A stretch of DNA of 64,000 bases from a virus (lineage: Duplodnaviria; Caudoviricetes), in IMG/VR virus record IMGVR_UViG_3300033121_000264, positions 40,686 to 104,685 of that record; one strand, given 5' to 3'. Within the stretch, counting starts at the first letter, position 1. Each line of letters begins with the position of its first letter. The notes beneath the pieces were generated by a model. It saw nothing but the letters and a program-made list of their open reading frames with translations, was not told the origin of the DNA and made no database searches. A program made the translations under genes and the position numbers. Positions 40,949-57,098 of the stretch are shown here, piece after piece.

Positions 40949-41161
40949 AAATATCTCCTATACGGAAAAACCCCTCCTAGGTATAATACACCACCAACAA
41001 ATGAGAATTAAAAAGATTAAATATAGATAGATTAGCTGAGACAAATTCAATTTTTGTCAGTTGATTTCGTTTGAATGCCCCCAACATTCACGACCCACCC
41101 ACAGGTAGTATATTTTGAATGAATAAACGGGCACCCCTATGCCTCATGATGATACATATTG

Positions 41162-41237
41162 TAAGGTGTTGCTATCAATAGACTTATGTATGTGTGATAC
41201 GCCGGCCCTCCCTAAGTCCTTACGCTGTAAGGGTTTA
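41162..41237. repeat. 76-bp paired-box element copy 1 (degenerate centre)
   Basis: TAAGGTGTT-N7-ATAGACTTA and TAAGTCCTT-N7-AAGGGTTTA, starts 51 bp apart. Confidence 0.75.
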
Positions 41238-41241
41238 CGAC

Positions 41242-41256
41242 TGGCACGATAGTTGC
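41242..41256 (+). promoter_or_regulatory. sigma54-like -24/-12 motif
   Basis: TGGCACGATAGTTGC matches TGGCACG-N4-TTGC. Confidence 0.55.
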
Positions 41257-41325
41257 CTTGGCCTCATAGCAAATACAATGCCATACCAAACAGAATAATT
41301 CTACAAGAATAATAGTAGATAGTTG

Positions 41326-41350
41326 TAAGTCCTTACGCACAACCAGGTTA
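41326..41350. repeat. solo 25-bp box
   Basis: TAAGTCCTT-ACGCACA-ACCAGGTTA. Confidence 0.65.
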
Positions 41351-41525
41351 TAGCTAAGTAGCAAATATCATACCGTAACACTCTCATAATAAAATGTTTA
41401 TTTTCTTGGAAATATTTCTTTTAGATATTTTGTTTTCTTTTGTGGAATTGTTCTGGACACGATAGGGATAGGTCGATAGAATACATAGAGACAAGAAAAG
41501 AACACTAAAGAGAAGGAAACGAACA

Positions 41526-41708
41526 ATGCCTAAGCTATTCTCCAAGAAGTCGATGCGTGAAGCGGTTGTCAAGATGCATCCCGTTATTGAGAACGGCCAG
41601 CACGTTTGGGTTGTGAGCAAGGGGTGGAAGTCCAAATATGCTTGGCCGGCCAATGGTATGTCAAGCCTAGAAATTGCCAAAAAAATGATGGAAAACTGGC
41701 AAGATTAA
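41526..41708 (+). CDS. early hypothetical protein
   Basis: AAGGA RBS, 60 aa. Confidence 0.6.
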   Translation: MPKLFSKKSMREAVVKMHPVIENGQHVWVVSKGWKSKYAWPANGMSSLEIAKKMMENWQD

Positions 41709-41780
41709 GGGTTGACAAAACCGATACTAAGTGTAGAATTGAAGCATACAAAGAAACGATAACACGAAGGAGATTGAAAG

Positions 41781-42026
41781 ATGGCTAAGCATGTTAAGAC
41801 GGTTTCGAGCTGGGATTTGTTTTCCGCTACTGTGTTGGGTGTCGATGTGGCACCTAGCAAGGGTGTGCAATTGAGCTACGGCGGTAAGATTCGTCGTGGT
41901 ACGGTTGAACGTATCGGACAACGTGAAGATGGTTCGATTGTGTTGAACGTGGAAACGCAAGACGGTTTCCGCAACTTCGATGCAGACTTGATTGAATCTT
42001 TCGAGATTCTGGAATTAGTTCTCTAA
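41781..42026 (+). CDS. early hypothetical protein (small SH3/WYL-like beta barrel possible)
   Basis: Own promoter, AGGAG RBS; LSYGGKIRRG...GFRNF pattern. Confidence 0.65.
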   Translation: MAKHVKTVSSWDLFSATVLGVDVAPSKGVQLSYGGKIRRGTVERIGQREDGSIVLNVETQDGFRNFDADLIESFEILELVL

Positions 42027-42109
42027 GTCTAGTTGACAAAGAGAGAGGCATCGGCTACAATTGGGTAGTCGATAGGATAACAGGAAAAGAAAAAGCCAGA
42101 GGTATTAGA

Positions 42110-42328
42110 ATGAGCATTGTAAACAGTACCGAATTGACGATTGCCGCAGTACGTGGTATGAGTGTTCGTCTGTTTGGTGAATCGTATGGTACGATTGATT
42201 ACCATGATGGTTTGTGGTTTCTTACCATTGGCGGTATACTGTATCACTTCGACGGTGAGGTACTAGATGAGATTAACTATGCTATGGCATATGCTTATCG
42301 TGAGTTGATACGCGAGGGGAAGGTGTGA
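42110..42328 (+). CDS. early hypothetical protein
   Basis: Own promoter, GAGG RBS. Confidence 0.6.
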   Translation: MSIVNSTELTIAAVRGMSVRLFGESYGTIDYHDGLWFLTIGGILYHFDGEVLDEINYAMAYAYRELIREGKV

Positions 42329-42377
42329 GCGTCACACCTAATGCAGACGCATAGGGCCGCCAGTAGAGGGGTACACA

Positions 42378-42593
42378 ATGGGAATGATGACTATAACGGA
42401 GATGCGAGACATGGTAAGTAGTCTAGAAGTTTCGATTATGCGAAATGAGCAACATCGTGAAGAAGCTCCCCATAACGACAAACGTGAATATTTCCAGTCG
42501 ATTATTGACGCCCAAAAATCGGCCAAACGATACTATGAAAAACGTATCGAAGAAGTTGGATTTGATAATATTGAGGAATTTTCTCAAAAATAA
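42378..42593 (+). CDS. early hypothetical protein
   Basis: GAGGGG RBS; ends just before element copy 2. Confidence 0.55.
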   Translation: MGMMTITEMRDMVSSLEVSIMRNEQHREEAPHNDKREYFQSIIDAQKSAKRYYEKRIEEVGFDNIEEFSQK

Positions 42594-42624
42594 CTCCGGC
42601 ACAGTAAATGCCTCTTGACAACCC

Positions 42625-42700
42625 TAAGTCCTTATAGGATAAGGGGTTAGGTCGCCGGGGCGCGTCCCCTCGCTCTAAGTCCTTACATATCAAGGGTTTA
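42625..42700. repeat. 76-bp paired-box element copy 2
   Basis: TAAGTCCTT-N7-AAGGGGTTA, N7, GGGGCGCGTCCC, N7, TAAGTCCTT-N7-AAGGGTTTA. Confidence 0.9.
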
Positions 42701-42872
42701 CGTTCCGGCATGAAAAATGCCTAGTCAAGAAAAAAGATTTTGCGTGCCTGGCATAAGAATTATTTTCTCGGCTTTTTTGAAAATATTTTCGATTTTGCTA
42801 TTGTGTTTTGTTGGAACGGACGATATAGTATGTAGAGTAATTGATTAAGTGATTGGTTTGAAAGGTTTGAAG

Positions 42873-43082
42873 ATGAAGATTGAAATTGGTGGTCGTGAAG
42901 TTTCCCGTAAGTCTTGCGAAGTTTGCAACGTGCTGTCGTTTGATTATCCGGATTTTTGTGATGCGTATATTGAATATGCCGAATTTGTCGATGGTGGTGA
43001 ATTGAACGATGAGCAGCTAGAAATTCTGAATGAAGAAAATTCTATGCTAGTTCACGAATTAGCTCACGAATCGCAATTTTAA
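42873..43082 (+). CDS. early acidic hypothetical protein
   Basis: ATG after AAAGG; DYPDFCDAYI motif. Confidence 0.6.
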   Translation: MKIEIGGREVSRKSCEVCNVLSFDYPDFCDAYIEYAEFVDGGELNDEQLEILNEENSMLVHELAHESQF

Positions 43083-43152
43083 GTATTGACGCAAGGTTAA
43101 ACAGCCGATAAAATCAGTAGAGTGATACAGTAAAGGTTTTAAGGGTAGAACG

Positions 43153-43347
43153 ATGAGCATTGAAAAGAAATTGATTGAAGCAACGAACGCTGGCGACTAT
43201 GCTGGTTTCGGCAAACATCGCCGGATTGTTAAGGAAACGGAAATTTCGGTGCCGGAAAAGTTTTGCGGTACTGAGATGGAATATGAGCGGTACGTTTCCG
43301 CTTACAAACGGTCGAATCGTGACGCATACGAAGAATACGCGGAGTAA
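43153..43347 (+). CDS. early hypothetical protein
   Basis: Own promoter and RBS. Confidence 0.6.
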   Translation: MSIEKKLIEATNAGDYAGFGKHRRIVKETEISVPEKFCGTEMEYERYVSAYKRSNRDAYEEYAE

Positions 43348-43533
43348 ATAAAATGGGTACTTTGCCGCCAGACGGTATGGTTATCGTAACTTTGTCAATC
43401 GTCGCCTTTGTTTTTATGGTGATTATTATTTGGGATGATATTCGTAAAAATTAGAAATTAGGGTTGACAAATTCGGCCCGGTTGCTAAAATCAGTAGAGT
43501 AACGAAAAACGACTTTTCTTAAGGAATACAAAA

Positions 43534-43752
43534 ATGTCAGAAGCTGAACTAGTTGTCAAGGCTTTAGCTGCTCATTTGCGAGATTTAGCAGATATTTGTT
43601 TAAGAGAAGATAATGACGGCCGTGGCGAATTATATTTAATCGCAGCGAAAGAATGCGAATCTGCTCTTGACGGCAAATATGGTTGGTCGTTAGAATTGTG
43701 GAAAGAATTAAAAGAATTACGCGAAGCAAACGAAGATGCACGTTCTTTGTAG
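43534..43752 (+). CDS. early hypothetical protein
   Basis: Own promoter, AAGGA RBS. Confidence 0.6.
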   Translation: MSEAELVVKALAAHLRDLADICLREDNDGRGELYLIAAKECESALDGKYGWSLELWKELKELREANEDARSL

Positions 43753-43827
43753 ATTCTGAAAATAGGTATTGACAAGCCTAGAAACAGTCGATACAATACA
43801 TAGAACAAAGGAAACAAAGGAAATAAG

Positions 43828-44004
43828 ATGAACGAACAAATTCAAAAAATGCTGGCCGAGCTACTTGATAGCAACGAACAAATTCTGAAATTGAGTGGGT
43901 CGAAAGTATCCCCCTCTGAAGAGGGGTTGGGAAACATTAACAACCATGCTTGCGATATTTATTTATTCGCAAAAAATCTGGAAAGACTATTGACGCAACA
44001 ATAA
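43828..44004 (+). CDS. early hypothetical protein (58 aa, below ORF-track cutoff)
   Basis: Own promoter at 43769, AAGGA RBS, MNEQIQKML... Confidence 0.55.
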   Translation: MNEQIQKMLAELLDSNEQILKLSGSKVSPSEEGLGNINNHACDIYLFAKNLERLLTQQ

Positions 44005-44053
44005 GCGGCCGATATAATTAGTAGAGTAACGAACAACGTAAAGGAATAGAAAA

Positions 44054-44269
44054 ATGCTGTACGACAACGAAGAACAATACAACGACGCCCGCGAATACTA
44101 CGAAGGTAACGATTACGACAATTGGGAAAACGAGCAAGTTTTCCAAGATAACGAGGGCGAGGAAGACTGGGGGGGCGAGGAAGATTCGTATGACCCCGGG
44201 GAATACGAGGCCAGCGACGAGGACGATGTTTACGGATGGGACGAGGACGATGGAAGGTGGGACGAATAG
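44054..44269 (+). CDS. extremely acidic small protein
   Basis: 31 of 71 residues D/E; own promoter and AAGGA RBS. Confidence 0.65.
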   Translation: MLYDNEEQYNDAREYYEGNDYDNWENEQVFQDNEGEEDWGGEEDSYDPGEYEASDEDDVYGWDEDDGRWDE

Positions 44270-44278
44270 GTAAAATAC

Positions 44279-44412
44279 GAGGATGGGACGGTCTGGCACC
44301 GTGCTAGTTTAGGGGAAATGTGCAAGCTACACAAAGTACCCAAAACTTACTAGCTGGATACTAGTTAAGCTAGGAAAATAGGATAAAGTGGGTTCGACCC
44401 CCACCATTCTCA
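44279..44412 (+). ncRNA. tRNA-like RNA with expanded anticodon domain
   Basis: Acceptor GAGGATG/CATTCTC, D-arm ACGG/CCGT, stem CTAGTTTA/TAAGCTAG enclosing about 55 nt, T-arm GTGGG-TTCGACC-CCCAC. Confidence 0.55.
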
Positions 44413-44501
44413 GCAAATAAGTAGAATAGGTAGTCTGGGAAAACCTGGGTTGCCCATTTTATTTATATTAACAGTGAGAATGAGTCTCAATCTCGTCGTC
44501 C

Positions 44502-44577
44502 TAAGTCCTTTACTGGTAAGGGTTTACGTCTGGGGGCCGCGCACCGCCCACCTAAGTCTATATACAGTAAGGGTTTA
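44502..44577. repeat. 76-bp paired-box element copy 3
   Basis: TAAGTCCTT-N7-AAGGGTTTA, centre GGGCCGCGCACC, TAAGTCTAT-N7-AAGGGTTTA. Confidence 0.9.
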
Positions 44578-44718
44578 CAGTTTGGTATGGTATTTGCCTA
44601 TCGTTTTAAAAAATAATTGTGTGCCGGGCATGAGAATTCTTTTCTGACCTATTTTGGAAAATTGTAGCGAGTGGCGTTGACAGGCGGCCGATAATTATGG
44701 TAGACTCAGTGAGTCAAG

Positions 44719-44937
44719 ATGATTCATTATATGAGGTTTATTATGGTTATTCGTACTGATTTTCAATTGTTGATTCACGACTTAGCCTGCTGCCAACTAA
44801 TGAAGAAAAAAGATTTAGATAGGTGCTTAACAGAACGTGGTTCAAACTCTATCATCGTGCTTGGCACCGTTCGCACAATTAAGTGGAAAAGCGAGGGGGC
44901 TGGATACTACAAGGTTTTTACGGTTCCGTTTGAATAG
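44719..44937 (+). CDS. early hypothetical protein
   Basis: Promoter at 44677; start may be a downstream ATG. Confidence 0.55.
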   Translation: MIHYMRFIMVIRTDFQLLIHDLACCQLMKKKDLDRCLTERGSNSIIVLGTVRTIKWKSEGAGYYKVFTVPFE

Positions 44938-45095
44938 GTGAAACTATAACCATTGATTTTACGTTTGCACGGTATCGAATGCCGCACCGCAGAAACCGTG
45001 ATTGCAGAAAATATTTTGCGAGACTAGTTGACAAGGTTTCGGCCAGTCGCTACAATTCACTAATCGAACGAAGAACACTTTAAGGAGATAGAAAA

Positions 45096-45515
45096 ATGAC
45101 GAATTTGATTCAACCGGGAATTACGCTGAACAATGGGGAAGTGATTGGTTCGATGAGCGACCTAGATTGTTTCCGCCAGTTCAGTTTTGACGCATCGACC
45201 TATATTGATGCAATCAATGCTGACAACGGAATCCAGTTGAGCAAGCCGAAAAATGGGAACGGACACAATAAGCCGATTTACCGGATTGCGAAGATTGGGA
45301 AAACCCAACGGGCTGCGACGGTTAAGAAAGAACGGAAAGCTACGAAGGCTGAGAATCTTGCGAAGTATATGAAAGAGGCGGAAGCTGGATTACCTTTGAG
45401 TGTTTGCAGCGACGACGAACTCTGCGACCGTATGGTCGCCGTGTTAAGCAAGCAAGGTAAGGACGGTTTGAAGTTTGGGGCGGTCGATGGCAAATGGGAT
45501 GGCGATGAAAACTAA
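45096..45515 (+). CDS. early hypothetical protein
   Basis: Own promoter, AAGGAG RBS, 139 aa. Confidence 0.7.
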   Translation: MTNLIQPGITLNNGEVIGSMSDLDCFRQFSFDASTYIDAINADNGIQLSKPKNGNGHNKPIYRIAKIGKTQRAATVKKERKATKAENLAKYMKEAEAGLPLSVCSDDELCDRMVAVLSKQGKDGLKFGAVDGKWDGDEN

Positions 45516-45695
45516 GGGGAATAGATGATTAAGGTAATTTGGGTGGTGCTGCTGGAATGGGCCAGCAGCGTTGATTGCATGGGAGCCTTCTCTAATGAGA
45601 CTGAGGCTCAAGAACACTTGAACACTTTGTATGATTCGCTAGATTACCCAAAGTCTGCATTTAGCCTACAATCCACACGCTATAAGGAATAGACC

Positions 45696-45771
45696 TAAAG
45701 CCTTATGGTGTAAGGACTTAGGTGGCCGGGGCGCACCCCGTCGATGTAACCATATATACAGTAACACTTTA
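45696..45771. repeat. 76-bp paired-box element copy 4
   Basis: TAAAGCCTT-N7-AAGGACTTA, centre GGGGCGCACCCC, TAACCATAT-N7-AACACTTTA. Confidence 0.85.
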
Positions 45772-45855
45772 CATCTTTAAATTTTGCCTATTGACATATT
45801 GGATAAAATGACGATAATATTGGTATAGCTCACAACATTGGAAGGATAGATAAGA

Positions 45856-46101
45856 ATGAAAATCTACGTGCTTTGCGATACTTACGTTGATTACGGGCAA
45901 TATGACCGAGATACGGAAATTGAGCAATTTAAGGATGTTGCGTCAATTGAGAAGGTCGTGGTAATTTGGGCACAACAGGAAGTTAAGGCAAATAAGATAA
46001 GACCGGCAACTTGCAAAGTATACGACGATGTGGGGCTTTGCGTAGGTAGGGTAGATTTGAAGAAAACTGCGGCGGCTGGTAGGGTCGTGATGGCCCAATA
46101 A
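45856..46101 (+). CDS. early hypothetical protein
   Basis: Promoter at 45791, AAGGA RBS. Confidence 0.6.
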   Translation: MKIYVLCDTYVDYGQYDRDTEIEQFKDVASIEKVVVIWAQQEVKANKIRPATCKVYDDVGLCVGRVDLKKTAAAGRVVMAQ

Positions 46102-46220
46102 TTGTATCGGCTAATATATGCCGATTATGATAGAGCCCGCCATTGCAAGCGAAAAAGTGGCACTCGCAAGCTAATATTGTACTTGACAAAGCTATAACGA
46201 TTAGTATAATAGAGACATAT

Positions 46221-46323
46221 CAGGGGACATGGTGACATAATAGTTGTGCTGGTGAGCGGTGGTAACACAGCGGAAGCCAGAGAACATAAGTATTATGGGT
46301 GGGTTCGATTCCTGCTCCCTAGC
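46221..46323 (+). ncRNA. possible tRNA-like small RNA
   Basis: Starts just after promoter 46183-46210; T-arm GTGGG-TTCGATT-CCTGC; imperfect acceptor CAGGGGA/TCCCTAG. Confidence 0.35.
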
Positions 46324-46356
46324 CTTAGTTAGTTCAGAAAAAGCCGAAGGTGAAGT

Positions 46357-46557
46357 ATGTTGAAAGATAAAGCCCTAGCATTACAGTTTGCCCAAGAGTT
46401 GAAAGCCCTATTTGATAAATATGAGGCAGAACGTATTACGCGAAATGAAAATGACTTGACAATTGTGGGGTCATTTGGTACAATTGATGATATTGACATT
46501 ACGACTGGTACTATCTGGTCAGAACAACCTTGTGGTTGGGCATTAATTAAGGAATAA
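46357..46557 (+). CDS. early hypothetical protein
   Basis: AAGGTG RBS. Confidence 0.55.
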   Translation: MLKDKALALQFAQELKALFDKYEAERITRNENDLTIVGSFGTIDDIDITTGTIWSEQPCGWALIKE

Positions 46558-46565
46558 CAATACAA

Positions 46566-46769
46566 ATGATAGAAAGAATGTGGATTAATCAACCATCAAC
46601 CTTGCAACCTGACCATTTTTGGCATGGTACAAATGTATTGGTTGATATGAGTTCTGTTAGATTTCATGAAAGAACCAAACAGAATCATGTTGACATTTAC
46701 TTTTTAAGCGGTAATATTATTAGCTGTAGATGCTCAATGTTATCATTATCTAAAGGATGGAAGCAATGA
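46566..46769 (+). CDS. early hypothetical protein
   Basis: AAGGA RBS; MWINQPSTLQP motif. Confidence 0.55.
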   Translation: MIERMWINQPSTLQPDHFWHGTNVLVDMSSVRFHERTKQNHVDIYFLSGNIISCRCSMLSLSKGWKQ

Positions 46770-47075
46770 AAACCTTTCGGCTTTTTCTTCTCCTAATCAC
46801 AGTTAAAATCAATATTGATGCGAATACGTATCAAATAAAAGATTGGCAACCTTTCGAGATTGTTAATCCTGCCCCAATTATCCCATTGTTACAACCTCTT
46901 AAGAAAAATTGGTGGATTCCATGACCGAAATGTTATCTGATTGGGCATTCTATTATGGTATGCTAGTTTTCATTTTAGTCGATGAATGGTGTAAAGTACA
47001 TCAAAGACCATGGTATGTAAAATTTATATTACTTACAACAATTTTAACATTTGGCATTTTTATGTTGAAGTTGTA

Positions 47076-47151
47076 TAAGTCCTGACTCCATAAGGAGTTA
47101 GGTGTTGGGGGCGTGCCCCGCGAACGTAAGTGCTTATGTAGTAACGACTTA
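47076..47151. repeat. 76-bp paired-box element copy 5
   Basis: TAAGTCCTG-N7-AAGGAGTTA, centre GGGGCGTGCCCC, TAAGTGCTT-N7-AACGACTTA. Confidence 0.9.
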
Positions 47152-47326
47152 AAACTACTAAAGAATTATCCCCAGGTTACCGATACTATCTATATCAAAG
47201 GAGTATTGGTATGAAAATTATTTTGACAATTCTTGCGATTGGCGTATTGACAATGACGGGCTGCGTTGCTACAATCAAGAGCGTAACAGTTGCTTATAAC
47301 GATGTGGAAGTAAGGACGGAATTCCG

Positions 47327-47515
47327 ATGAAAATTACTATTGATATTCAGCACCGTTACACGGATAATGATAACGAGGAAAATGAATACATTGTCAAAAT
47401 CTCTGATGATACCAAATTAGAGACCAGTGAATACAAGTGTGACGATATTCAAAAAGTAAAGAATTTTATTAGTTTAACAGTTCGTGAAACTTTGTTTGAC
47501 TTAGGAATGTATTAA
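47327..47515 (+). CDS. early hypothetical protein
   Basis: 62 aa, coupled to neighbours. Confidence 0.5.
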   Translation: MKITIDIQHRYTDNDNEENEYIVKISDDTKLETSEYKCDDIQKVKNFISLTVRETLFDLGMY

Positions 47516-47719
47516 TGAAAATCACTGGCCGCGAATTGGCACAGATGGGTCGTAATGGTCACACCACCCATTTTAGTGGTACTGGCTTGCATCGCAATTG
47601 GAAGAAACAACCAAAAGGTGGAAAGAAAGCCCAGGCTCGTAAAGCTATTCGAGAATTTGCTTGACAAGTCTGAAAAGTCTGATACACTAAGCTAGTCACC
47701 AACAATAAGGATTAGTAAA

Positions 47720-47974
47720 ATGACTGACCTATCCCATCCTGAGTTTAGACTGACTAGGAACCGGCCATACGTTCTTTGTAACTGTCCTGGACGTAAGGAC
47801 GTTCGTGCCCGTCAAGGTTATTACATTCGTGCTAAAGATTCTCAAGCTGCACTTGAGCGAATGGCTGAACACTTTCCGGATGATATGCAATTCGGATTTA
47901 CTTGCGATTTGTGGAAGTTGCCCGAAGGTATGAGTTTTGAACACTATAACGAAATGTTGGAGATTATGTCGTGA
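47720..47974 (+). CDS. early hypothetical protein
   Basis: Own promoter, AAGGA RBS. Confidence 0.6.
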   Translation: MTDLSHPEFRLTRNRPYVLCNCPGRKDVRARQGYYIRAKDSQAALERMAEHFPDDMQFGFTCDLWKLPEGMSFEHYNEMLEIMS

Positions 47975-48201
47975 AGATTACAGAAGCAATCAACCAACTT
48001 ACAGAATGTTTAAAAACTGGCGAAACCGACATTATCTTTGCATATTGGGAAAGAAATATGTTTGATATAGACGGTAAACTAATTGACAAAGAAACCTTTG
48101 CAGGTTATGCTGAAGATATTGAAGACAATATGGATTGGTCGTATGCTTGGGAAGATATGATGGAAATTATTGCTAGAAATGTAGCAGAAGATTCAGAATA
48201 A
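47971..48201 (+). CDS. early acidic hypothetical protein
   Basis: GGAG RBS; stop 2 bp before element copy 6. Confidence 0.6.
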   Translation: MKITEAINQLTECLKTGETDIIFAYWERNMFDIDGKLIDKETFAGYAEDIEDNMDWSYAWEDMMEIIARNVAEDSE

Positions 48202-48203
48202 CG

Positions 48204-48279
48204 TAAAGCCTTTACTCGTAAGAGTTTAGGCGTTGGGGGCGTGGCCCGCCGCCATAAGTCCTTATATACCAAGGGATTA
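48204..48279. repeat. 76-bp paired-box element copy 6
   Basis: TAAAGCCTT-N7-AAGAGTTTA, centre GGGGCGTGGCCC, TAAGTCCTT-N7-AAGGGATTA. Confidence 0.9.
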
Positions 48280-48406
48280 CGCTCACTAGAATTATTCGTA
48301 GAATTATTTTTCCAGGCCGCTTGACAATGCCGATAAAGACTGTATAATGATGGAGTAAGGCAAACGAATCACTTCGATTCGGAACCAATTATCTAAGGAG
48401 TCTGAT

Positions 48407-48598
48407 ATGTCGCAAGTTCAAACCATTCGTGCCCTTCGTATGGCGTCTGCTCTCGTTAAGAAGAACCGTTTCGATACGGCTCGGATTCAGCGTGCTATCA
48501 AGTCTAAGGTGGGTGTGACGGTCGATGGTCGTACGATTGCCGGCATCCGAATGTCGCATCGTTATCAGGTGGGGAAAGCGTTGAGTTTGGTTATGTAA
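48407..48598 (+). CDS. small basic early protein
   Basis: Own promoter, AAGGAG RBS, Arg/Lys-rich. Confidence 0.65.
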   Translation: MSQVQTIRALRMASALVKKNRFDTARIQRAIKSKVGVTVDGRTIAGIRMSHRYQVGKALSLVM

Positions 48599-48962
48599 AT
48601 AAAAGATTGGGGACTGGGGGAAATAGCAAAGGTGGGTACAATATGATAGAGACTCACGCCTCCAGTTTTCAATTTTCTAATTTCGTTTTTAGTCAAGCAA
48701 ACCATTTTTTTGGGAGACAATGACAATGCAACAATATATTGAGTACCGGTTGAGTGAAAAGGGAAGCGAACACCAAGGCCAATGGATTGAGTTTGGCCGA
48801 GTCGAGGCTAAGAGTCGTCGGCAGGCAATGAAGCAACTAAGTAAGGATGACCCGAAAGAGGGGCCACAAGTTCAGCGGAAAGTTCGTCAGGCCGAATAGG
48901 GCTTGACAGATTGAAAATCCGTTGTAAAATTGTGGTATACTAATCGCTTCTCTTGGTGTAAC

Positions 48963-49355
48963 ATGACGATTGAAAAGCAAGCAACGTTTGATTTTGTTGT
49001 TGGAAAAATTCGCGAACAGGGTTGTGCTTCTGTTAAACCCGATTCAAATAGCTGTTTGTATCGTGGACCGAATGGTACTAAATGTGCGGCTGGTCATGTC
49101 ATTCCAGATGAAAAATATGACCCTTGTTTTGAGGGTTGTACTGTCCCCGTATCTCTTGCAGACTGGGACTCTGGTAATACTAAAAAACTTTATGAAGTTT
49201 TGAAAGAAACTGGACACGATTTAAATTTGTTGCGTTCTTTGCAACGTGCTCACGACAGCATATCTATGGAATATAATTTCCTAGCAGGTTTTGAGAAAAA
49301 TGTCCAGCATGTAGCAGAATTTCATGAGTTAGTTTACACTCCGCCGAAGGAGTAG
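48963..49355 (+). CDS. hypothetical protein, paralogue A (CLYRGPNGTKCAAG family)
   Basis: Colinear similarity to 50037-50423; ATG at 48963 matches the paralogue start. Confidence 0.8.
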   Translation: MTIEKQATFDFVVGKIREQGCASVKPDSNSCLYRGPNGTKCAAGHVIPDEKYDPCFEGCTVPVSLADWDSGNTKKLYEVLKETGHDLNLLRSLQRAHDSISMEYNFLAGFEKNVQHVAEFHELVYTPPKE

Positions 49356-49358
49356 TCC

Positions 49359-49434
49359 TAAGTCCTTTAGCCGCAAGGCTTTAGGCATAGGGGGCGTGCC
49401 CCATAGCTCTAACTCCTTATGCTACAACGACTTA
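49359..49434. repeat. 76-bp paired-box element copy 7
   Basis: TAAGTCCTT-N7-AAGGCTTTA, centre GGGGCGTGCCCC, TAACTCCTT-N7-AACGACTTA. Confidence 0.9.
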
Positions 49435-49478
49435 GAAATATACTTGACAGATGAGAATTCTATTGTATAATAATTGAA

Positions 49479-49620
49479 CTTAGGGAGATGCCGCTATGGT
49501 GGCGGATACGCCTATAAGGTAGGATAGAACGGTCCTACTACCTAGGAGCCAAATACTTGTATCTGCTAAAATAGGCAGATTGCCCCGAGCCACATGATGC
49601 CTGCGAAATCAGTCGCAAGC
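49479..49620 (+). ncRNA. putative structured small RNA
   Basis: No ORF-track call between promoters at 49444 and 49633; four hairpins and a closing stem. Confidence 0.4.
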
Positions 49621-49666
49621 GAATATTTAGGGTTGACAAACGAAAAGCCGAGAGTATAATAGTCGT

Positions 49667-49873
49667 ATGAGCAAACAATTCTTCCATGTTAGTGAGCGGG
49701 TTAAAAGTTTAATGATGGGCCATATTGAGGGCACTGTTGTTATAACCCATAATAGGGGTGAGTTGGGTTGGGAATACTTTATCTGTTGGGATAATGGGAT
49801 GAGTGGGTCATTTACAGAAGAACAAATTGTAGCAAACGGAATTAAGAAATGTCATCGCTTAAATCAATCCTAA
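49667..49873 (+). CDS. early hypothetical protein (probably leaderless)
   Basis: ATG 6 bp after -10 box. Confidence 0.55.
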   Translation: MSKQFFHVSERVKSLMMGHIEGTVVITHNRGELGWEYFICWDNGMSGSFTEEQIVANGIKKCHRLNQS

Positions 49874-50040
49874 ACCAGAAATCCTACGGCATTTTTATTC
49901 AAGGGGTTGACGAAAACGGAATTCCTTGTATGATTAGGGTCGCAGGTGAGTGGACGAACAAACGAGTGGCTCAACGTGAAACTCGCCGCTTAATGAATTT
50001 GGATAGTCGAAAACTTAAAGGGGAATTGGTACAATTATGA
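49849..50040 (+). CDS. early hypothetical protein
   Basis: Overlaps both neighbours. Confidence 0.5.
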   Translation: MSSLKSILNQKSYGIFIQGVDENGIPCMIRVAGEWTNKRVAQRETRRLMNLDSRKLKGELVQL

Positions 50041-50423
50041 TTACTATGCAAGAAACGTTTGATTTCGTTGTCGGTAAGATTCGTGAGCAGGGTTGTGCTT
50101 CTATTGTGGAAGGTGGTAGTAGTTGCCTTTATCGTGGGTCGAATGGTACGAAGTGTGCCGCTGGTCACGTTATCCCAGATGACAAGTATGACCTTATTTT
50201 TGAGGGTTGTACCGTTGTCACGAAACCTTGGGATGGAATGCGTGAAGGTGTTAAAAAGTTGTACGAAGTGTTAAAAGAAACTGGCCACGATTTAGATTTG
50301 CTTCGTAACTTACAACGATGTCACGACGATGCATCTTCATTTAAAAACTTTATGGAGAAGTTTGAAATTAACGTGAAAGAGATTGCTACCTTAAAAGAAT
50401 TAACCTACACCCCGAAAGCATAA
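50037..50423 (+). CDS. hypothetical protein, paralogue B (CLYRGSNGTKCAAG family)
   Basis: Similarity to 48963-49355. Confidence 0.8.
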   Translation: MITMQETFDFVVGKIREQGCASIVEGGSSCLYRGSNGTKCAAGHVIPDDKYDLIFEGCTVVTKPWDGMREGVKKLYEVLKETGHDLDLLRNLQRCHDDASSFKNFMEKFEINVKEIATLKELTYTPKA

Positions 50424-50438
50424 AACAACCCAACGTCA

Positions 50439-50514
50439 TAAGTCCTTACTATGTAGGGATTTATGGCTAAGGGGCACGCCCGCCATACCTAAGTCGTTAT
50501 GCCACAAGGGTTTA
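50439..50514. repeat. 76-bp paired-box element copy 8
   Basis: TAAGTCCTT-N7-AGGGATTTA, centre GGGGCACGCCCG, TAAGTCGTT-N7-AAGGGTTTA. Confidence 0.9.
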
Positions 50515-50675
50515 CGTCCGGCACGATATTTGCCCAGAAAATCTTTTCAGAATTATGATGCCAGGCACACCATTTTATTTTATTCTAGGCTCTGTATTAG
50601 TGGGGATTAACGATTGACGCCAGGCCGATTCTATGGTACAATCCAGACTTCGCAGCCAGTTAAAACCGGAGTCAA

Positions 50676-51437
50676 GTGATGGAAATTTTAAAGTTTGGAA
50701 AAGCAAACGGAAAATTGAAGCAATTGCAAGCAAAATTGGGCCGGAAAGTAGCAATTTTTGATATGCTCGCCGGCCATACTTGCCCATTCGCTAAAGATTG
50801 CCTATCTAAAGCAATTAACCTAGATGGGAAGCGAACAATTGAAGATGGGAAAGATACAAAGTTTCGGTGCTATGCGGCGAGTTTGGAAGTTATCTATCCG
50901 GCCGTATATTTCGCACACGAACACAATACTAAGCTGATTCGCACAGCTCTATTGGGGGGTGTGAATAATGTAGTCGATTTGATTACACAATCAATCCCAA
51001 AGTGGGCCGAAGTTATCCGGATTCACTCATCGGGCGATTTTTTCCATCTTAGCTATTTTGACGCTTGGCGGAAAGTTGCGGAATCTTATCCAGACCGCCT
51101 ATTCTACGCATATACTAAGGCTACCCCGTTCTGGGTGAAACGCCTAGATGCTATCCCCCCGAATATGCTACTTACCGCTAGTTTTGGGGGTAAGCGTGAT
51201 GATTTGATTTTGTCGCATAATCTCCGGTCAAGTTTGGTAGTTAAGACCGTAGCAGAAGCGAAAAAATTGAAATTGCCTATTGACAAAGCTGATATTTGTG
51301 CAGCTACGCCTGGCCCTAACTTTGCTTTGCTGATTCATGGAGTTCAGCCGAAGGGAAGCGAATACGGAAAAGCGGTACGGAAACTAAAGGGGAAGGGAAG
51401 TTATGGTCGAAAGTCTACTCGAAAGGTGGCTGTTTAA
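50676..51437 (+). CDS. GP88-family (radical-SAM-like) protein
   Basis: AGHTCPFA..C...CYA, RIHSSGDFF, FYAYTK. Confidence 0.75.
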   Translation: MMEILKFGKANGKLKQLQAKLGRKVAIFDMLAGHTCPFAKDCLSKAINLDGKRTIEDGKDTKFRCYAASLEVIYPAVYFAHEHNTKLIRTALLGGVNNVVDLITQSIPKWAEVIRIHSSGDFFHLSYFDAWRKVAESYPDRLFYAYTKATPFWVKRLDAIPPNMLLTASFGGKRDDLILSHNLRSSLVVKTVAEAKKLKLPIDKADICAATPGPNFALLIHGVQPKGSEYGKAVRKLKGKGSYGRKSTRKVAV

Positions 51438-51702
51438 TGAAACCGCAAATATGGGCCATTCTATTGGGGGGTTTGATGATTCTCGGATGGTACATGGAAG
51501 CAAGTAAAAATTCTGGCCGCTAGTTGACAAGTCGTGAAAAGATGGTAAAATTTGGGAGTCGTGAGGGGATGACTGAAACGAGAAAAGCCAACAACGAAAA
51601 AAACGCGAGTCGCTTGACAAGCTATAAAATGTTGGTATAATCAAAGAGTCGCCCACAGTTAAACGGTTTTGTAGTTTTTATTTTTTGAAAGGTTGGTGTA
51701 CG

Positions 51703-52146
51703 ATGGCTGAGCAAGTGACGAACGGTGTTGAAACGGAAACGACGATTGTTGTCCCGGGTATGAAGGTGGGCAAGTCGGCCCCGAAGATGCGAAAGGATGG
51801 TACGCCTCGTAAGGAGCGTACCGTGGTCGAGGACGAAAAGTTTCTGGCTGCGTATTTCGCGGCGGTTAAGGCCGGTCATCCGGTTAGCAAGTTGGCGGAA
51901 ACTTTGGGAATGGCGGTCGGTTCGGTGATTCAACGCATCGAATCGACTAACACGAACCTCTTGGAGGTTGGTGCGAAGCCGCTGCCGAAGTTGGCACGTA
52001 AGACCGGTCCCCGAAAAGACCGTTCCGCCCTGGCTGCCCTAGTTGCCCAGATTGGCAAGGGTACGCTGGAAAGCCTGCCGGTTGAAGCCCCTATTTCGGG
52101 GGAAGCTCCGGAAATGTCGGACGAGGAAGCTAACAGCGACGCCTAA
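51703..52146 (+). CDS. putative DNA-binding (HTH) early protein
   Basis: VSKLAETLGMAVGSVIQR HTH-like; tandem upstream promoters; followed by terminator; visibly GC-rich codons. Confidence 0.65.
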   Translation: MAEQVTNGVETETTIVVPGMKVGKSAPKMRKDGTPRKERTVVEDEKFLAAYFAAVKAGHPVSKLAETLGMAVGSVIQRIESTNTNLLEVGAKPLPKLARKTGPRKDRSALAALVAQIGKGTLESLPVEAPISGEAPEMSDEEANSDA

Positions 52147-52172
52147 GCACTAGGCCGAGTTGAGTAGAAACT

Positions 52173-52220
52173 AAGCAAGCCACCTATCAGGGGTAACTCT
52201 GGTGGGTGGTTTGTTTTATT
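52173..52220 (+). terminator. intrinsic terminator
   Basis: AGCAAGCCACCTATCAGGG-GTAA-CTCTGGTGGGTGGTTTGTT then TTATT. Confidence 0.75.
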
Positions 52221-52239
52221 GTATAAAATGCAATCGTCG

Positions 52240-52315
52240 TAAGTCCTTACCTGGTAAGGGTTTAGGGCTGGGGGGCGTGCCCCGCCGCTGTAAGTCTATA
52301 TGCTGTAATGGTTTG
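52240..52315. repeat. 76-bp paired-box element copy 9
   Basis: TAAGTCCTT-N7-AAGGGTTTA, centre GGGGCGTGCCCC, TAAGTCTAT-N7-AATGGTTTG. Confidence 0.9.
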
Positions 52316-52402
52316 CATTGTTTTATTTTTGTCTATTGACACTTCGATAATTCGGTGTAAAATCACTACATCAAAGCAACTAACTTCACAAAGGAAAATG
52401 TC

Positions 52403-52660
52403 ATGCGTATCTGGGTTCGTAAAGCCGATTGTGTCAAGGCTCGTCAGGCTATGGAAGCCGGTTTGTCTATTAAGGATGGTGCTTGCCCCGTTATCCAAGC
52501 GTTGCGTTCGCTTGATATTCCGGCCCAAGATTGCGGATATGAGACAATCTACGTCGATGGGAAAGCGTACAATATGAATGGGCACAATACCATTCGCCGT
52601 TGGTTGCATACGAATTGCGACAACGGATTTTATATCAAGATTAAGGACTTGACATACTAG
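52403..52660 (+). CDS. early hypothetical protein
   Basis: Own promoter, AAGGA RBS. Confidence 0.6.
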   Translation: MRIWVRKADCVKARQAMEAGLSIKDGACPVIQALRSLDIPAQDCGYETIYVDGKAYNMNGHNTIRRWLHTNCDNGFYIKIKDLTY

Positions 52661-52715
52661 AAACTTGTGCTACAATTCAATAGTCAACGGTCAACAGTAA
52701 ACAAGGAATCAAAAA

Positions 52716-52961
52716 ATGAAAACGAACGATTTGAAAAAGGGTACACGAATCAAGTTGGCTAATGGTTGGGAAGCTATTATTGAGGATAATATGAAAGGCA
52801 ACACTCGCCTTGCCAAAGTGTTCGGATTCTTTACCGAAATTGGTTCGGTCTACAGTCACGATATTAAGTATTTCCGAAATGATGCTGGTATTTGGGAAAG
52901 TGTGGAACATACGCCAGCCCAAATTAAGATGCGAAAACAAGTCTCAAGTTTTGGAATGTAA
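52716..52961 (+). CDS. early hypothetical protein
   Basis: Own promoter, AAGGA RBS. Confidence 0.65.
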   Translation: MKTNDLKKGTRIKLANGWEAIIEDNMKGNTRLAKVFGFFTEIGSVYSHDIKYFRNDAGIWESVEHTPAQIKMRKQVSSFGM

Positions 52962-53121
52962 CTAAAGGACGAATAAAATGAAAAATTGTGCCTTGACTTT
53001 CTCGTTCTTTGTGGTACAATGGGCGTAGTTGCAGCAGTAATAATCTGTGGGCTACGCTAGTGACAAATAAACAGTGGGAAGCTATAATACTTATCCTACT
53101 GTTGATTGGGTGGTATCGTGA

Positions 53122-53194
53122 GGAACTGTAGTATAATGGTTATTACAGCGGACTTTTAATCCGCAAAATCTGGATTCGACTTCCAGCGGTTCCA
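53122..53194 (+). tRNA. tRNA-Lys(UUU)
   Basis: GGAACTG/CGGTTCC acceptor; GCGGA-CTTTTAA-TCCGC; CTGGA-TTCGACT-TCCAG. Confidence 0.88.
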
Positions 53195-53218
53195 CTTAAT
53201 GAATACAATCTAAGATAC

Positions 53219-53289
53219 GCCCCATTATGTTAATGGTAGACACGCCGGTTTTCAGCCGGAAAATAACAGTTCGATTCTGTTATGGGGTA
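53219..53289 (+). tRNA. tRNA-Glu(UUC)
   Basis: GCCCCAT/ATGGGGT; CCGG-TTTTCAG-CCGG; AACAG-TTCGATT-CTGTT. Confidence 0.82.
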
Positions 53290-53295
53290 CTTTAT

Positions 53296-53372
53296 GCTGG
53301 CATGGCTCGACTGAGAAAGGCACCGCACTTGTAATGCGGATTATGTGGGCGCGAATCCTACTGTCAGCCCCA
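53296..53372 (+). tRNA. tRNA-Thr(UGU), encoded CCA, atypical T-loop
   Basis: GCTGGCA/TGTCAGC; CCGCA-CTTGTAA-TGCGG; T-loop CGCGAAT. Confidence 0.8.
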
Positions 53373-53386
53373 TACTAGAGGATAAT

Positions 53387-53551
53387 ATGAAAAGTGAAAT
53401 TGTTAAAATTGAATTAACCAAAGAACAATATGAACAGTTAATTAGCGAATTGTATTCATTATATGGTTATCACTGGAATAGCGATAAAGTTCATGCTGAT
53501 GATTGTGGAAGTAAGGTGATTGATATCATCCAATCACAAGTCCAATCATAG
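53387..53551 (+). CDS. hypothetical protein
   Basis: GAGGA RBS before ATG 53387; stop lies inside element copy 10. Confidence 0.55.
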   Translation: MKSEIVKIELTKEQYEQLISELYSLYGYHWNSDKVHADDCGSKVIDIIQSQVQS

Positions 53552-53612
53552 TAAGGACTTAAGTGTAAGGGGCACGCCCCCCAGACGTAACTCCTTATGC
53601 CACACCAGGTTA
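53537..53612. repeat. 76-bp paired-box element copy 10
   Basis: CAAGTCCAA-N7-AAGGACTTA, centre GGGGCACGCCCC, TAACTCCTT-N7-ACCAGGTTA. Confidence 0.85.
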
Positions 53613-53825
53613 CAAATACAAGCCCCCATTGATGTGATTATTCCCCAGAATATGTATAGACTATAAACAAATACATGATATAATTGTATCATCTAATCTA
53701 TTCTCATCCCCACAGGCCAGCCACAGCAAGCCAATTTATATGATTGCCGATGATATTGGTCGTCAGCCAATTTGCCCCAAAAGAGGTATAGACAGACCGT
53801 AAAAAGATAGTATAATGAGATATAT

Positions 53826-53895
53826 GGGTTCACCAATGGATTTTGGCTGCGGTTCTTCTAAAACTGCTTGTGGGGTTCGATTCCCTATGGACCTA
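53826..53895 (+). tRNA. tRNA-Arg(UCU), atypical D-arm
   Basis: GGGTTCA/TGGACCT; CGGTT-CTTCTAA-AACTG; TGGGG-TTCGATT-CCCTA. Confidence 0.65.
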
Positions 53896-53900
53896 CTTTA

Positions 53901-53988
53901 CGAAGGTAGTGTACCAGGAACTCTTATAAGGTTCCCGAGATTAAATGATGGTAATGGTTCTCATCAGGTTCGATTCCTGTACCTTCGA
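53901..53988 (+). tRNA. tRNA-Ile(UAU)-like, lacking D-arm, long variable arm
   Basis: Perfect CGAAGGT/ACCTTCG; GGAACT-CTTATAA-GGTTCC; CAGG-TTCGATT-CCTG. Confidence 0.6.
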
Positions 53989-54424
53989 CTTAGTGTAGTC
54001 AATTTGATGACAGATTAGATTACAAAACTGTAAGGTTGTAGTCACTTTGATGACGTTGGTAGTGTCGCGAGACTATAATTTAATTATGAGAGTAATTAAG
54101 ATTCTAAGTTAAATTAGGAAAAAGCCGAGGGAAGAAAACTATGGTAAATTGGAAACAAGACCTACCTATTCTTATTGGTGGTTTGATTGGTCTAGTGTTG
54201 GGTTGTTTGATTAATTACCTTTTACATGGGCATATCTAATGGTTGAAGTGATTAAACGTTCATTCTTGGTTATCTGTGTGGTCTTTACTATTCTTGATAT
54301 TGGTTACAGGTTGTGGTACGGTCTACCTATTATGTAACTCTCGGCCTTTAAAAGTATTTGGTTTGTAGGGTTGGAATTATACTTGACATGGGCCGAAAGG
54401 TGAGTATAATACTATAGAAGATTT

Positions 54425-54498
54425 TACGGTGGGGAGCCGCTGGTGGCTCGGAATAGCTGTTAACTATTTTGCCATTGGTTCGATTCCAATTGCCGTAG
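54425..54498 (+). tRNA. tRNA-Asn(GUU)
   Basis: TACGGTG/TGCCGTA, G discriminator; AATAG-CTGTTAA-CTATT; ATTGG-TTCGATT-CCAAT; own promoter. Confidence 0.85.
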
Positions 54499-54519
54499 CT
54501 AGTTTAGATAGGACAACGT

Positions 54520-54705: not shown

Positions 54706-54752
54706 CCTAATCAGATTCGACCAGGGCTAACCACAGTCAGTCAAGTATTAAT

Positions 54753-56367: not shown

Positions 56368-56392
56368 TAAACCCTTACGTAGTATAGACTTA
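56368..56392. repeat. solo 25-bp box
   Basis: TAAACCCTT-ACGTAGT-ATAGACTTA, 3 bp after stop of 39-aa ORF 56245-56364. Confidence 0.7.
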
Positions 56393-56934: not shown

Positions 56935-57098
56935 TATGACACAAACTCGTATTATCACTTCTCTGCCTAGATTACTTGAGACAGTCCAAGTCGTACAACT
57001 AACTAAAGCAAAGAAAGTTAAAAAGCCGAAGAAGGAACATCTTCCAAGGTCGTCAGGTTATCGCGTGATTCGTAAATATATTTTGGATTGGGAATAAA

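Follow-up and report, generated by a model that had tools for sequence, protein, structure and literature searches.

The ten repeats that divide the early region of this phage genome are real. We give a little better than an even chance to the reading that, taken as a whole, they are protein sites on duplex DNA set in phase with promoters. To judge from their sequence, they are most likely paired candidate docking sites for a DNA-bending protein on double-stranded DNA, and most likely not recombinase sites or RNA hairpins.

Anatomy of the elements in the window

The window is the whole 64,000-nucleotide stretch analysed, part of a 104.7-kb contig. The earlier note had claimed ten 76-base copies, each with two 25-bp boxes starting 51 bp apart and without indels. 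All of this is borne out in the window, where every copy lies at the place given for it and the pitch is kept with 0 indels in 10/10 copies. With up to three mismatches allowed, the box pattern matched 31 times compared to 0.31 expected from shuffles, all 31 matches being confined to 41.2-56.4 kb. The remaining 40.7 kb of the contig gave a single 2-mismatch match, i.e. chance level. An independent repeat finder recovered the same family (D1, nine copies; D2, which adds the copy at 45696). The elements are multicopy, intergenic and GC-richer than their surroundings.

All ten copies lie on the plus strand. E1 (41162..41237), with a degenerate first box and core and a perfect second box, sits at the divergence point between minus-strand structural/HNH genes and plus-strand early genes. 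E2 (42625..42700) starts 32 bp past the stop of the ORF 42378-42593 and is followed by a GGCA-N7-TGCC leader module, which is also found downstream of E3 (44502..44577); a terminator-like hairpin (44429-44454) precedes E3. Four copies closely follow a stop codon: E4 (45696..45771) by 4 bp (stop at 45692), E6 (48204..48279) by 3 bp (stop at 48201), E7 (49359..49434) by 4 bp and E8 (50439..50514) by 16 bp, the last two behind the paralog genes 48930-49355 and 50037-50423. The stop codon of the ORF 46909-47085 lies inside the first box of E5 (47076..47151), E9 (52240..52315) has a terminator-like hairpin upstream (52173-52216), and E10 (53537..53612), with both boxes weakened, overlaps the end of the ORF 53345-53551. 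The second box is degenerate in copies 4, 9 and 10.

The GC palindrome said to occupy the dyad axis is an exact GGGGC-RY-GCCCC in 4/10 copies (5, 7, 9 and 10), while five further copies depart from it by one to three bases. The 7-bp spacers differ among all copies, and also between both boxes of one copy; they do not pair, as had been stated. Two solo boxes had also been listed. The one at 56368..56392, on the minus strand, holds with two mismatches and no partner, while that at 41326..41350 (plus strand) is half-degenerate, its left arm being perfect but its right arm poor.

The leader module is a palindrome resembling a −24/−12 motif (GG-N10-GC). It occurs on the plus strand at 41243..41257, 5-6 bp past the second box of E1, and again after E2 (42707), E3 (44584) and E8 (50520), the four copies forming two duplicated pairs. 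In the relatives this motif has no linkage to the boxes. Sigma-54 gave no match in two MAGs, both incomplete.

Each box is a 37-bp palindrome with an IHF-like core

When the boxes were oriented by the promoter alone, each widened to a symmetric 37-bp palindrome, in which flank positions outside the detection pattern carry 1.0-1.8 bits each. The invariant columns TAA, TT, AA and TTA amount to AA-N4-TTR on both halves; invariance in the AA, TT and TTA columns is 94-100%, and 9 bp separate the TT/AA steps (positions 8-9 and 17-18). The canonical IHF site is WATCAA-N4-TTR; its two AA steps are spaced by 9 bp and it spans ~34 bp (PMC1874591). By this rule the boxes possess an IHF-type core with correctly spaced AA/TT steps. 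The full 13-base IHF consensus, WATCAA included, was present in only 21/194 boxes. The C of CAA is found in 67% of the promoter-side boxes and 40% of the distal ones, and arm positions 4-7 (GTCC) and the flanks are kept far beyond what the E. coli IHF consensus needs. Given this conservation and the rarity of the full consensus, the binder could be another dimeric protein, including one of the phage.

The elements thus resemble IHF sites in the AA-N4-TTA core, in the 9-bp step spacing and in an extent of ~37 bp. They resemble IHF-assisted promoters in their upstream position on a fixed helical face and, at four window copies, in the −24/−12-like motif beside the site. They differ from IHF sites in their doubled, mirror-symmetric consensus, in the conservation of N4 and flanks, in the usual lack of WATC and in the rigid pairing of sites around a GC core; the likeness is one of sequence geometry alone. 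No match to PF00216 (HU/IHF) was found in the five genomes G000-G004. As the phage has no DNABII gene, the simplest binder would be a host IHF-type nucleoid protein; the chance that the binder is specifically such a protein we put somewhat short of even. One MAG that bins a family contig encodes IHF-alpha, binning being a weak link to a host.

The arms are kept as sequence and not as pairs

Arm pairing reached 70.9% in the ten window copies compared to 72.1% in shuffles, and 83.6% compared to 84.7% in 51 copies from relatives. In the same 51 copies, a single-strand fold of outer and inner arms left 78.0% of cells paired compared to 79.1% in shuffles. Compensatory double changes were fewer than in shuffles and the RNAalifold covariation term was unfavourable. 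A quarter to a third of the boxes have mismatches, which are never compensated, and position 7 in the promoter-side box fails to pair in 42/51 copies. The arms are therefore kept as sequence and not as pairs, and since they show no compensatory changes, RNA, ssDNA and attC-like folds are unsupported.

These data bear on the reading, very improbable in our view, that the elements are 3' untranslated hairpins which terminate, stabilise or process each early mRNA. An element starts 0-30 bp past a co-oriented stop codon in 42/64 family cases and in 6/9 window cases, as such hairpins might; terminator-like sites are scarce in the island (11 compared to 12.1 expected, just two near elements), and the R/Y degeneracy of the right arm fits G-U pairs on the sense strand. 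Besides the missing covariation, however, conserved stems with free loops are the reverse of what protein-bound RNA hairpins present, no hairpin plus T-run lies within the elements and no U-tract follows them, and a helical register with a DNA promoter, as described below, would be senseless for RNA.

Distribution and pitch in related phages

The contig and relatives were scanned, as the earlier note had proposed, and the element proved to be family-wide. It was found in at least 36 IMG/VR stretches, and in each genome the copies always sit in one GC-elevated island of 7-17 kb. The TerL of the element-bearing relatives is only 52-54% identical to that of the window, and their early regions have no DNA similarity to it besides the elements. 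A complete relative with 43% identical TerL has no boxes at all. The GP88 family is the sole early protein common to the window and the relatives' arrays. On the earlier suggestion that the elements could help first-injected DNA to enter or be protected, the only 'terminal repeat' of a relative turned out to be a 123-bp assembly overlap.

The 51-bp spacing, fixed in the ten window copies, is not universal: 53 is the commonest pitch in the relatives, the others being 50-54 or 41-42. None of 121 family elements has a pitch of 43-49 bp; all fall at 41-42 or 50-54 bp, which gives two classes about one helical turn apart. These two classes may stem from just two evolutionary events. Across the family, the central core is kept only as G/C runs, in either orientation, which speaks against the sequence-specific central factor proposed earlier. 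Lineage-specific arm variants exist, and the promoter-side arm has a separate consensus. In two relatives (G001 and G004) the direction of the element flips along with that of the genes; the polarity of the element follows transcription.

Helical register with early promoters

In the family, the distances from the promoter-side box to the −35 hexamer cluster at 9, 20, 30-32, 40-43, 49-53, 60-62 and 70-74 bp, with a best period of 10.5 bp (R 0.77). With orthologues collapsed, R is 0.74 (p ~4e-13), and the p-values for the 10.5-bp quantisation, ~1e-13 to ~4e-13 overall, are optimistic, as neither the element copies nor the locus pairs are phylogenetically independent.

A promoter with at most two mismatches lies within 120 bp of 68/121 family elements and, in the window, of E3, E4 and E6-E9. 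An in-register promoter accompanies only four or five of the ten window copies, namely at 9 bp from E7 (49444-49471, 12/12), 19 bp from E4 (45791-45818), 20 bp from E9 (52336-52363) and 41 bp from E6 (48321-48348, 12/12 consensus). The promoters of E3 (44677-44706, sigma-70-like, beyond the leader module) and E8 (50614-50642, after the −24/−12-like motif) are out of register, both at 99 bp. E1, E2 and E5 have no promoter within 120 bp, no near-consensus promoter stands ahead of the next gene after E5, and E10 is followed by weak promoter-like sites only (53657-53684 and 53789-53816). About 15 near-consensus promoters of the window lack any element, so the element is not needed for promoter activity.

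The earlier proposal of a fixed-geometry double-stranded site, with two dimers on one helical face, agrees with the arms kept as sequence, the 37-bp palindromes, the pitch classes one turn apart and the 10.5-bp promoter period. Of the three functions it had offered, operator or insulator comes closest.

An operator array is a possible, though rather unlikely, alternative. A phage-encoded dimer would bind the twin palindromes and switch the whole early island off or on together, as in phi29 p4 with p6 or the SPbeta repeated element with its repressor. The 37-bp palindromes hold more information than a host nucleoid-protein site requires, the sites are restricted to one island per genome and arm variants are lineage-specific; the complete relative without boxes is expected if site and phage gene come and go together. 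However, the sites lie 9-74 bp upstream of promoters and not over them, many early promoters of the island have no site, and the same positions are invariant across phages with dissimilar early genes. In addition, no candidate gene was found, and the GP88-family protein gave no DNA-binding signal.

Recombinases and cassette seams

PF00589 (tyrosine recombinase) gave no match in G000 and four relatives (94-100% complete), in a search where the control genomes all gave matches; likewise, neither PF00239 (serine recombinase) nor PF01797 (Y1/HUH transposase) matched in these five genomes. No target-site duplications or direct repeats are visible at the flanks of the ten copies, and the flank bases that the copies share are the palindromic extension of the boxes. 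The candidates that depend on such signatures were rejected: an integron attC or tyrosine-recombinase core (no PF00589, no fold covariation, spacers not identical), a resolvase res site (no PF00239), REP/BIME with RAYT (no PF01797, no hairpin covariation) and a MITE (no target-site duplications). The earlier reading of the boxes as recombinase cores or res sites is thus unsupported, with no recombinase found in the contig and four relatives and with differing spacers; recombination sites, moreover, need no helical register with promoters, yet a register is seen.

A selfish miniature element of MITE or REP/BIME type, spread via intergenic gaps, would, like these elements, be short, have inverted repeats at its ends, occur in several intergenic copies and exceed its surroundings in GC. 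We hold it to be barely credible, as neither target-site duplications nor a Y1 or other transposase were found and the copies, which keep to a single island, all point in the direction of transcription and stand in helical register with promoters.

Relatives were compared, as had been suggested, and homology breakpoints are enriched at the elements. Homology between relatives is one-sided at 52% of elements compared to 20% of element-less promoter controls, i.e. it breaks 2.6 times more often at elements, and the conserved side of the seam is the promoter side in 129 cases compared to 19. One gene-plus-element unit of the window is duplicated and recurs at a ~1075-bp register. The island is made of ORFans, 18/20 without any PHROG family. 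In the one pair compared by hand (G001 and G004), most indels are away from the elements.

That the repeats primarily serve to shuffle accessory cassettes, through a site-specific recombinase or as portable homology of the PeSL (promoter-early stem-loop) kind, is unlikely. The enriched breakpoints, the cassette duplication in register with the elements, the ORFan island and a 9-7-9 geometry resembling tyrosine-recombinase cores all favour it. Against it stand the three recombinase classes without match in five genomes, the differing spacers, the lack of folded-strand covariation, the indels of the hand-compared pair and the 10.5-bp promoter register and constant pitch, which recombination does not require. 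As a recombinase-driven, integron-like system the earlier shuffling proposal is not sustained; it survives in a weaker, homology-driven PeSL-like form because breakpoints are enriched at the elements, and a homology-driven recombination role of the elements is likely real but secondary.

A possible bending module at the edge of early cassettes

In the duplex-site reading, the element would be a protein-binding module with two 37-bp palindromic sites for a dimeric protein that wraps and bends DNA; a stiff G/C-rich core would hold the sites at a spacing of whole helical turns. Both halves of each site would mirror the core of the IHF/HU family (DNABII), and a host nucleoid protein would already be present as the phage DNA enters the cell. 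The module would stand directly behind the last gene of one early unit, and the early promoter that comes next, of host type (sigma-70), would face it at a constant helical angle. Two in-phase sharp bends might then fold upstream DNA back onto the polymerase, and/or keep adjacent units, whose transcription is very strong, apart from each other. As ~80 bp recurring every 1-2 kb, the elements would also be the 5' edges of exchangeable cassettes, at which relatives could gain, lose, duplicate and swap promoter-plus-gene cassettes by ordinary homologous recombination.

We only tentatively propose the corresponding 'double U-turn' module, i.e. two mirror-doubled nucleoid-protein sites at whole-turn spacing around a stiff GC core. 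That in the whole phage clade it recruits a host bending protein to the immediate-early island, and serves as a portable 5' cassette boundary, is an equally tentative proposal. If true, it would differ from PeSLs, integrons and REP elements and be a new class of cassette that combines regulation with recombination. Should the binder be a bending protein of the host, the element could serve as a small natural part with which to insulate promoters and control them face-dependently, it could mark early/accessory islands in metagenomic phages, and it could help to trace the host, from which the binder must come.

The early ORFan-rich islands of large phages accumulate host-takeover and anti-defence genes. 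To our knowledge, their simultaneous expression and fast reshuffling are understood only for T4-type phages, through PeSLs. An unrelated, uncultured clade of large phages would present a different solution, with unusually clean and quantitative signatures: the rigid pitch, the 10.5-bp promoter register and the seam enrichment. In the literature searched, no account of the motif came to light.

Comparison with known systems

In the phi29 p4/p6 early-late switch, paired inverted-repeat sites upstream of promoters bend DNA and act on the host RNA polymerase in a face-dependent manner. The p4 sites are few, bound by a phage protein and unlike the elements in sequence and spacing, and no gene resembling p4 was found here.

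Integron attC sites, like the elements, occur once per cassette and consist of two inverted-repeat 'simple sites' with a variable centre between them. Here, in contrast, no integrase or folded-strand covariation was found, the cassettes have their own promoters and the consensus differs.

REP/BIME elements, some of which bind IHF (PMC3333891), likewise lie between genes as pairs of palindromes joined by a linker, and are connected with the binding of nucleoid proteins. In BIMEs, GC-rich palindromic hairpins flank the linker and are associated with Y1 transposases, whereas here, without hairpin constraint or Y1 transposase, the palindromes themselves look like protein sites.

The PeSL cassettes of T4-type phages combine a promoter with a terminator stem-loop (Arbiol et al. 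2010, PMC2839356). Like the elements, they are short regulatory cassettes that recur between small, non-essential early genes in a hyperplastic region and lie where relatives gain, lose or replace genes, as the seams show here. PeSLs are coupled to strong sigma-70-type promoters, as many of the elements seem to be. Unlike PeSLs, the elements belong to an unrelated phage lineage and have neither a terminator hairpin nor a pairing constraint; they present two 37-bp palindromes of protein-site type, set at a fixed pitch on either side of a GC core, at a promoter distance that is variable but helically quantised.

Elements in the window and in related phages

All ten 76-bp elements of the earlier note (E1 to E10, plus strand, starts 41162 to 53537) were found where it had placed them, and the same repeat family was picked up by an independent repeat finder. 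Each element carries two 25-bp palindromes of 9-7-9 form (boxes 1 and 2) around a GC core. The confinement of the boxes also holds, as the 31 pattern matches, against 0.31 expected, all lie within 41.2-56.4 kb, and a scan of the full 104.7-kb contig, whose completeness is estimated at 68%, gave a single match outside the window, which is the chance level. In 10 of 10 window copies the starts of the two boxes are separated by 51 bp, with no indel. Degeneracy is seen in copy 1 and, for the second box, in copies 4, 9 and 10, and the 7-bp spacers are not alike among the copies.

At least 36 stretches were returned by an exact pattern scan of IMG/VR, the longest of their contigs being 166 kb, and approximately 100-120 distinct paired elements were taken from them. 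The box-to-box distance (pitch) of 51 bp is not universal: it varies by lineage, 53 bp being the commonest (74 elements), the others being 52, 51, 50, 54 and 41-42 bp, with one element at 59 bp and none within 43-49 bp, and it is constant within any one genome. Four relatives with 94-100% completeness each have every box gathered in a single island of 7-17 kb close to the terminase gene. The element is a family trait. The large terminase (TerL) of these relatives is 52-54% identical to that of the window, and, at the nucleotide level, nothing but the elements themselves is similar between their early regions and that of the window. Some relatives present three-box elements, with an extra box 50 bp past the pair (locus L011, 3481-3608; locus L015, 4913-5040; and orthologues). 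A complete 163.6-kb relative (G006, the genome of locus L197), whose TerL has 43% identity to that of the window, lacks the box altogether.

The window's own layout, 51 bp with GGGGC-RY-GCCCC, has no second match in IMG/VR. The nearest TerL relatives, 50-55% identical, are on short contigs without boxes, and a search for contigs encoding the window protein gave none. Cultured phages are very remote (TerL identity below 31%) and megablast of the window against them gave no match; a full-text literature search with the arm sequence returned unrelated primers only. The apparent direct terminal repeat of one element-bearing relative, G001, is really a 123-bp assembly overlap.

The only early-island protein that the window shares with the relatives' arrays is a GP88-family protein (PF17338, function unknown; window 50676-51437), 44-47% identical to its relatives at six loci. 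It was set aside as a candidate binder of the boxes, as it has no solved relative and its single-sequence model is poor (pLDDT 42).

The early island

Up to about 41 kb the window carries structural genes on the minus strand, and the genes there include those of the large terminase, a tape measure protein of 2486 aa and HNH endonucleases. From 41.5 kb onwards, small genes follow by the dozen on the plus strand, and 18 of 20 such genes tested had no PHROG family match. The GC content is 42% in the element island, compared to 33-36% elsewhere, in the window (41162-53612) and in the relatives G001 (142-159 kb, locus L045) and G004 (17-32 kb, locus L048), and the difference holds with the elements removed. 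The early accessory genes are distinct in composition across three diverged phages. A third tRNA (53296-53369) is called by Rfam and not by ARAGORN, and a tRNA-like T-arm with acceptor end is seen near 44390-44415 (region about 44279-44415), where no tRNA is called.

Folding of the elements and anatomy of the boxes

The consensus is G-U compatible on the sense strand, which led to the idea of a hairpin. In the ten window copies, box pairing reached 70.9% of cells compared to 72.1% in shuffles, and the RNAalifold energy was −4 kcal/mol, its covariation term being unfavourable. In 51 promoter-oriented copies from relatives, pairing within the box hairpins was 83.6% (shuffles, 84.7%) and compensatory cells numbered 6 where 14.3 were expected. 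The common arm variants only make mismatches: in 42 of the 51, the promoter-side box is unpaired at its position 7. RNA or single-stranded DNA hairpins inside the boxes, and a mini-hairpin of four pairs within the distal box, were rejected as no better than shuffles, as was a long attC-like fold of box 1 with box 2 (78.0% paired versus 79.1%). A role as RNA or as a folded single strand is not supported. The stems are kept as sequence and their centres are free, which is the pattern typical of half-sites recognised in double-stranded DNA.

When the elements are oriented by the side bearing a near-consensus promoter, an orientation that is independent of box asymmetry, each box widens to a mirror-symmetric site of 37 bp, whose flank positions, unused in detection, hold 1.0-1.8 bits. 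The invariant columns are TAA, TT, AA and TTA. The right half of the box reads AA-N4-TTR and the left half is its mirror image, and 9 bp separate the TT step from the AA step. Between the boxes, the core is kept only as G and C runs, in both orientations relative to the boxes; it therefore looks more like a stiff spacer than like a third specific site, and a sequence-specific form of the central factor formerly proposed is not supported.

A canonical IHF site, of about 34 bp in all, has WATCAA and, four bases on, TTR, and its two AA steps, where prolines intercalate, are nine base pairs apart (PMC1874591). The boxes appear to resemble an IHF core that is doubled and symmetric. The fit is partial, as the full 13-base consensus occurs in just 21 of 194 boxes and the C of CAA in 40-67% of them, and as conservation at the flanks and at positions 4-7 of the box arms exceeds any IHF requirement.

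Promoters and helical register

In 16 kb of the window (41000-57000) the plus strand, and only that strand, carries 22 promoters of host type that agree with the sigma-70 consensus at 11-12 of 12 positions, roughly one per small gene, and terminator-like sites in the island are not more frequent than in shuffles. Several of the promoters share an extended context at the −10 (repeat families D3, D8 and D9).

Across the family, the spacing between the promoter-side box, counted from its end, and the −35 clusters at 9, 20, 30-32, 40-43, 49-53, 60-62 and 70-74 bp. A period scan from 7 to 15 bp over 66 elements peaks at 10.5 bp (R 0.77), and after orthologues were collapsed to 53 clusters R is 0.74 (Rayleigh p ~4e-13). 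Polarity tracks transcription, since in G001 and G004 the elements flip when gene direction does, and a separate consensus marks the promoter-side arm. Such helical phasing relative to a DNA promoter points to a protein complex on duplex DNA with a set face toward the polymerase or the upstream DNA, and would be hard to explain otherwise.

In the window, promoters stand in register at E7 (9 bp), E4 (19 bp), E9 (20 bp) and E6 (41 bp). Those of E3 and E8 are out of register, at 99 bp, beyond a conserved 95-bp leader; E10 has weak promoter-like sites only, and E1, E2 and E5 have no promoter nearby. As about 15 strong window promoters have no element, this mixed picture makes the element a promoter accessory and not a requirement.

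The best-supported reading of these sequence data is a twin architectural protein site on duplex DNA. Two dimers of a DNA-wrapping protein would sit 4 or 5 helical turns apart, giving in-phase DNA bends upstream of immediate-early promoters. The simplest candidate for the binder would be a host IHF-type protein, because nothing else is available when the DNA enters and a gene of this kind is missing from the phage; no HU/IHF-family protein is encoded in the contig or in the four near-complete relatives. A regulator encoded by the phage itself is a serious rival for this role. The complex would have an effect on transcription, which could be activation through DNA wrapped around the polymerase, insulation between very strong units, or the countering of silencing of AT-rich DNA.

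Some window elements are accompanied by a motif that fits the sigma-54 −24/−12 consensus GG-N10-GC, nearly perfectly at E1 and E8, and that doubles as a GGCA-N7-TGCC palindrome. It starts 5-6 bp past box 2 in E1 (41243-41257), E2 (42707-42721), E3 (44584-44598) and E8 (50520-50534), and it also occurs 27-32 bp before E1 (41130-41143) and E2 (42598-42612). An inverted GCC-N-GGCA lies about 25 bp past the motif in E2, E3 and E8, and E1/E8 and E2/E3 form longer duplicated units. The motif is not linked to boxes in the relatives.

Gene ends, homology seams and cassettes

The window elements begin 0-32 bp past a co-oriented stop codon, the stop lying inside the box twice, and in 42 of 64 family cases a stop is within 30 bp of the element. 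The gap between them usually lacks the space for a terminator.

Homology seams were scored among the relatives' loci (186 related locus pairs, the window itself not among them). Homology was one-sided at 52% of the elements, and in another 13% the element was a lone island of homology. Dummy sites of equal size upstream of element-less strong promoters gave 20% and 3%, and random positions 23% and 2%; as locus pairs and element copies are non-independent, these ratios are indicative. Where homology was one-sided, the promoter side was the conserved one in 129 cases versus 19, so that element, promoter and downstream genes move as a unit with the junction at the distal edge. Most indels between G001 and G004, compared by hand as one pair, are away from elements, and the seam effect is therefore statistical and not absolute.

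Tyrosine recombinases, serine recombinases and Y1 transposases were undetected in the contig and the four near-complete relatives, the control genomes giving matches; for the first two enzymes this agrees with what had been noticed by eye in the window. No target-site duplications flank the ten copies. With these enzymes undetected in five genomes, unequal spacers and absent duplications, the element was rejected as a recombinase or transposon site, including the tyrosine-recombinase core and res site suggested at the outset. Of the cassette-shuffling idea, the enrichment of homology breaks at elements among relatives stands, and the recombinase does not. In T4-type phages, PeSLs make promoter-plus-gene units exchangeable (PMC2839356). 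The present repeats probably have a similar second role as homology patches, by which each promoter-plus-gene unit becomes exchangeable.

Two paralogous genes of the window (48930-49355 and 50037-50423; phrog_17693, unknown function) share 66% amino acid and about 80% nucleotide identity. Each is the final gene ahead of an element, E7 and E8 respectively, with a register of 1071-1080 bp, and the two units are a tandem duplicated cassette.

Boxes in bacterial genomes

In 596 Gb of bacterial genomes, about 280 chance matches to the 16-base box pattern are expected. Paired elements were found there only on phage-like contigs binned into metagenome-assembled genomes (Gammaproteobacteria, Flavobacteriales and unclassified). 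Genomes of Spirochaetia and Planctomycetota (loci L052-L131) contain lone perfect 9-7-9 palindromes that have the arm of the elements, in excess of the approximately 9 that chance would give for the perfect form. Several lone bacterial boxes, with the partner box absent, lie about 40-46 bp from a tRNA-like T-arm sequence, and some are mere long terminator-like hairpins.
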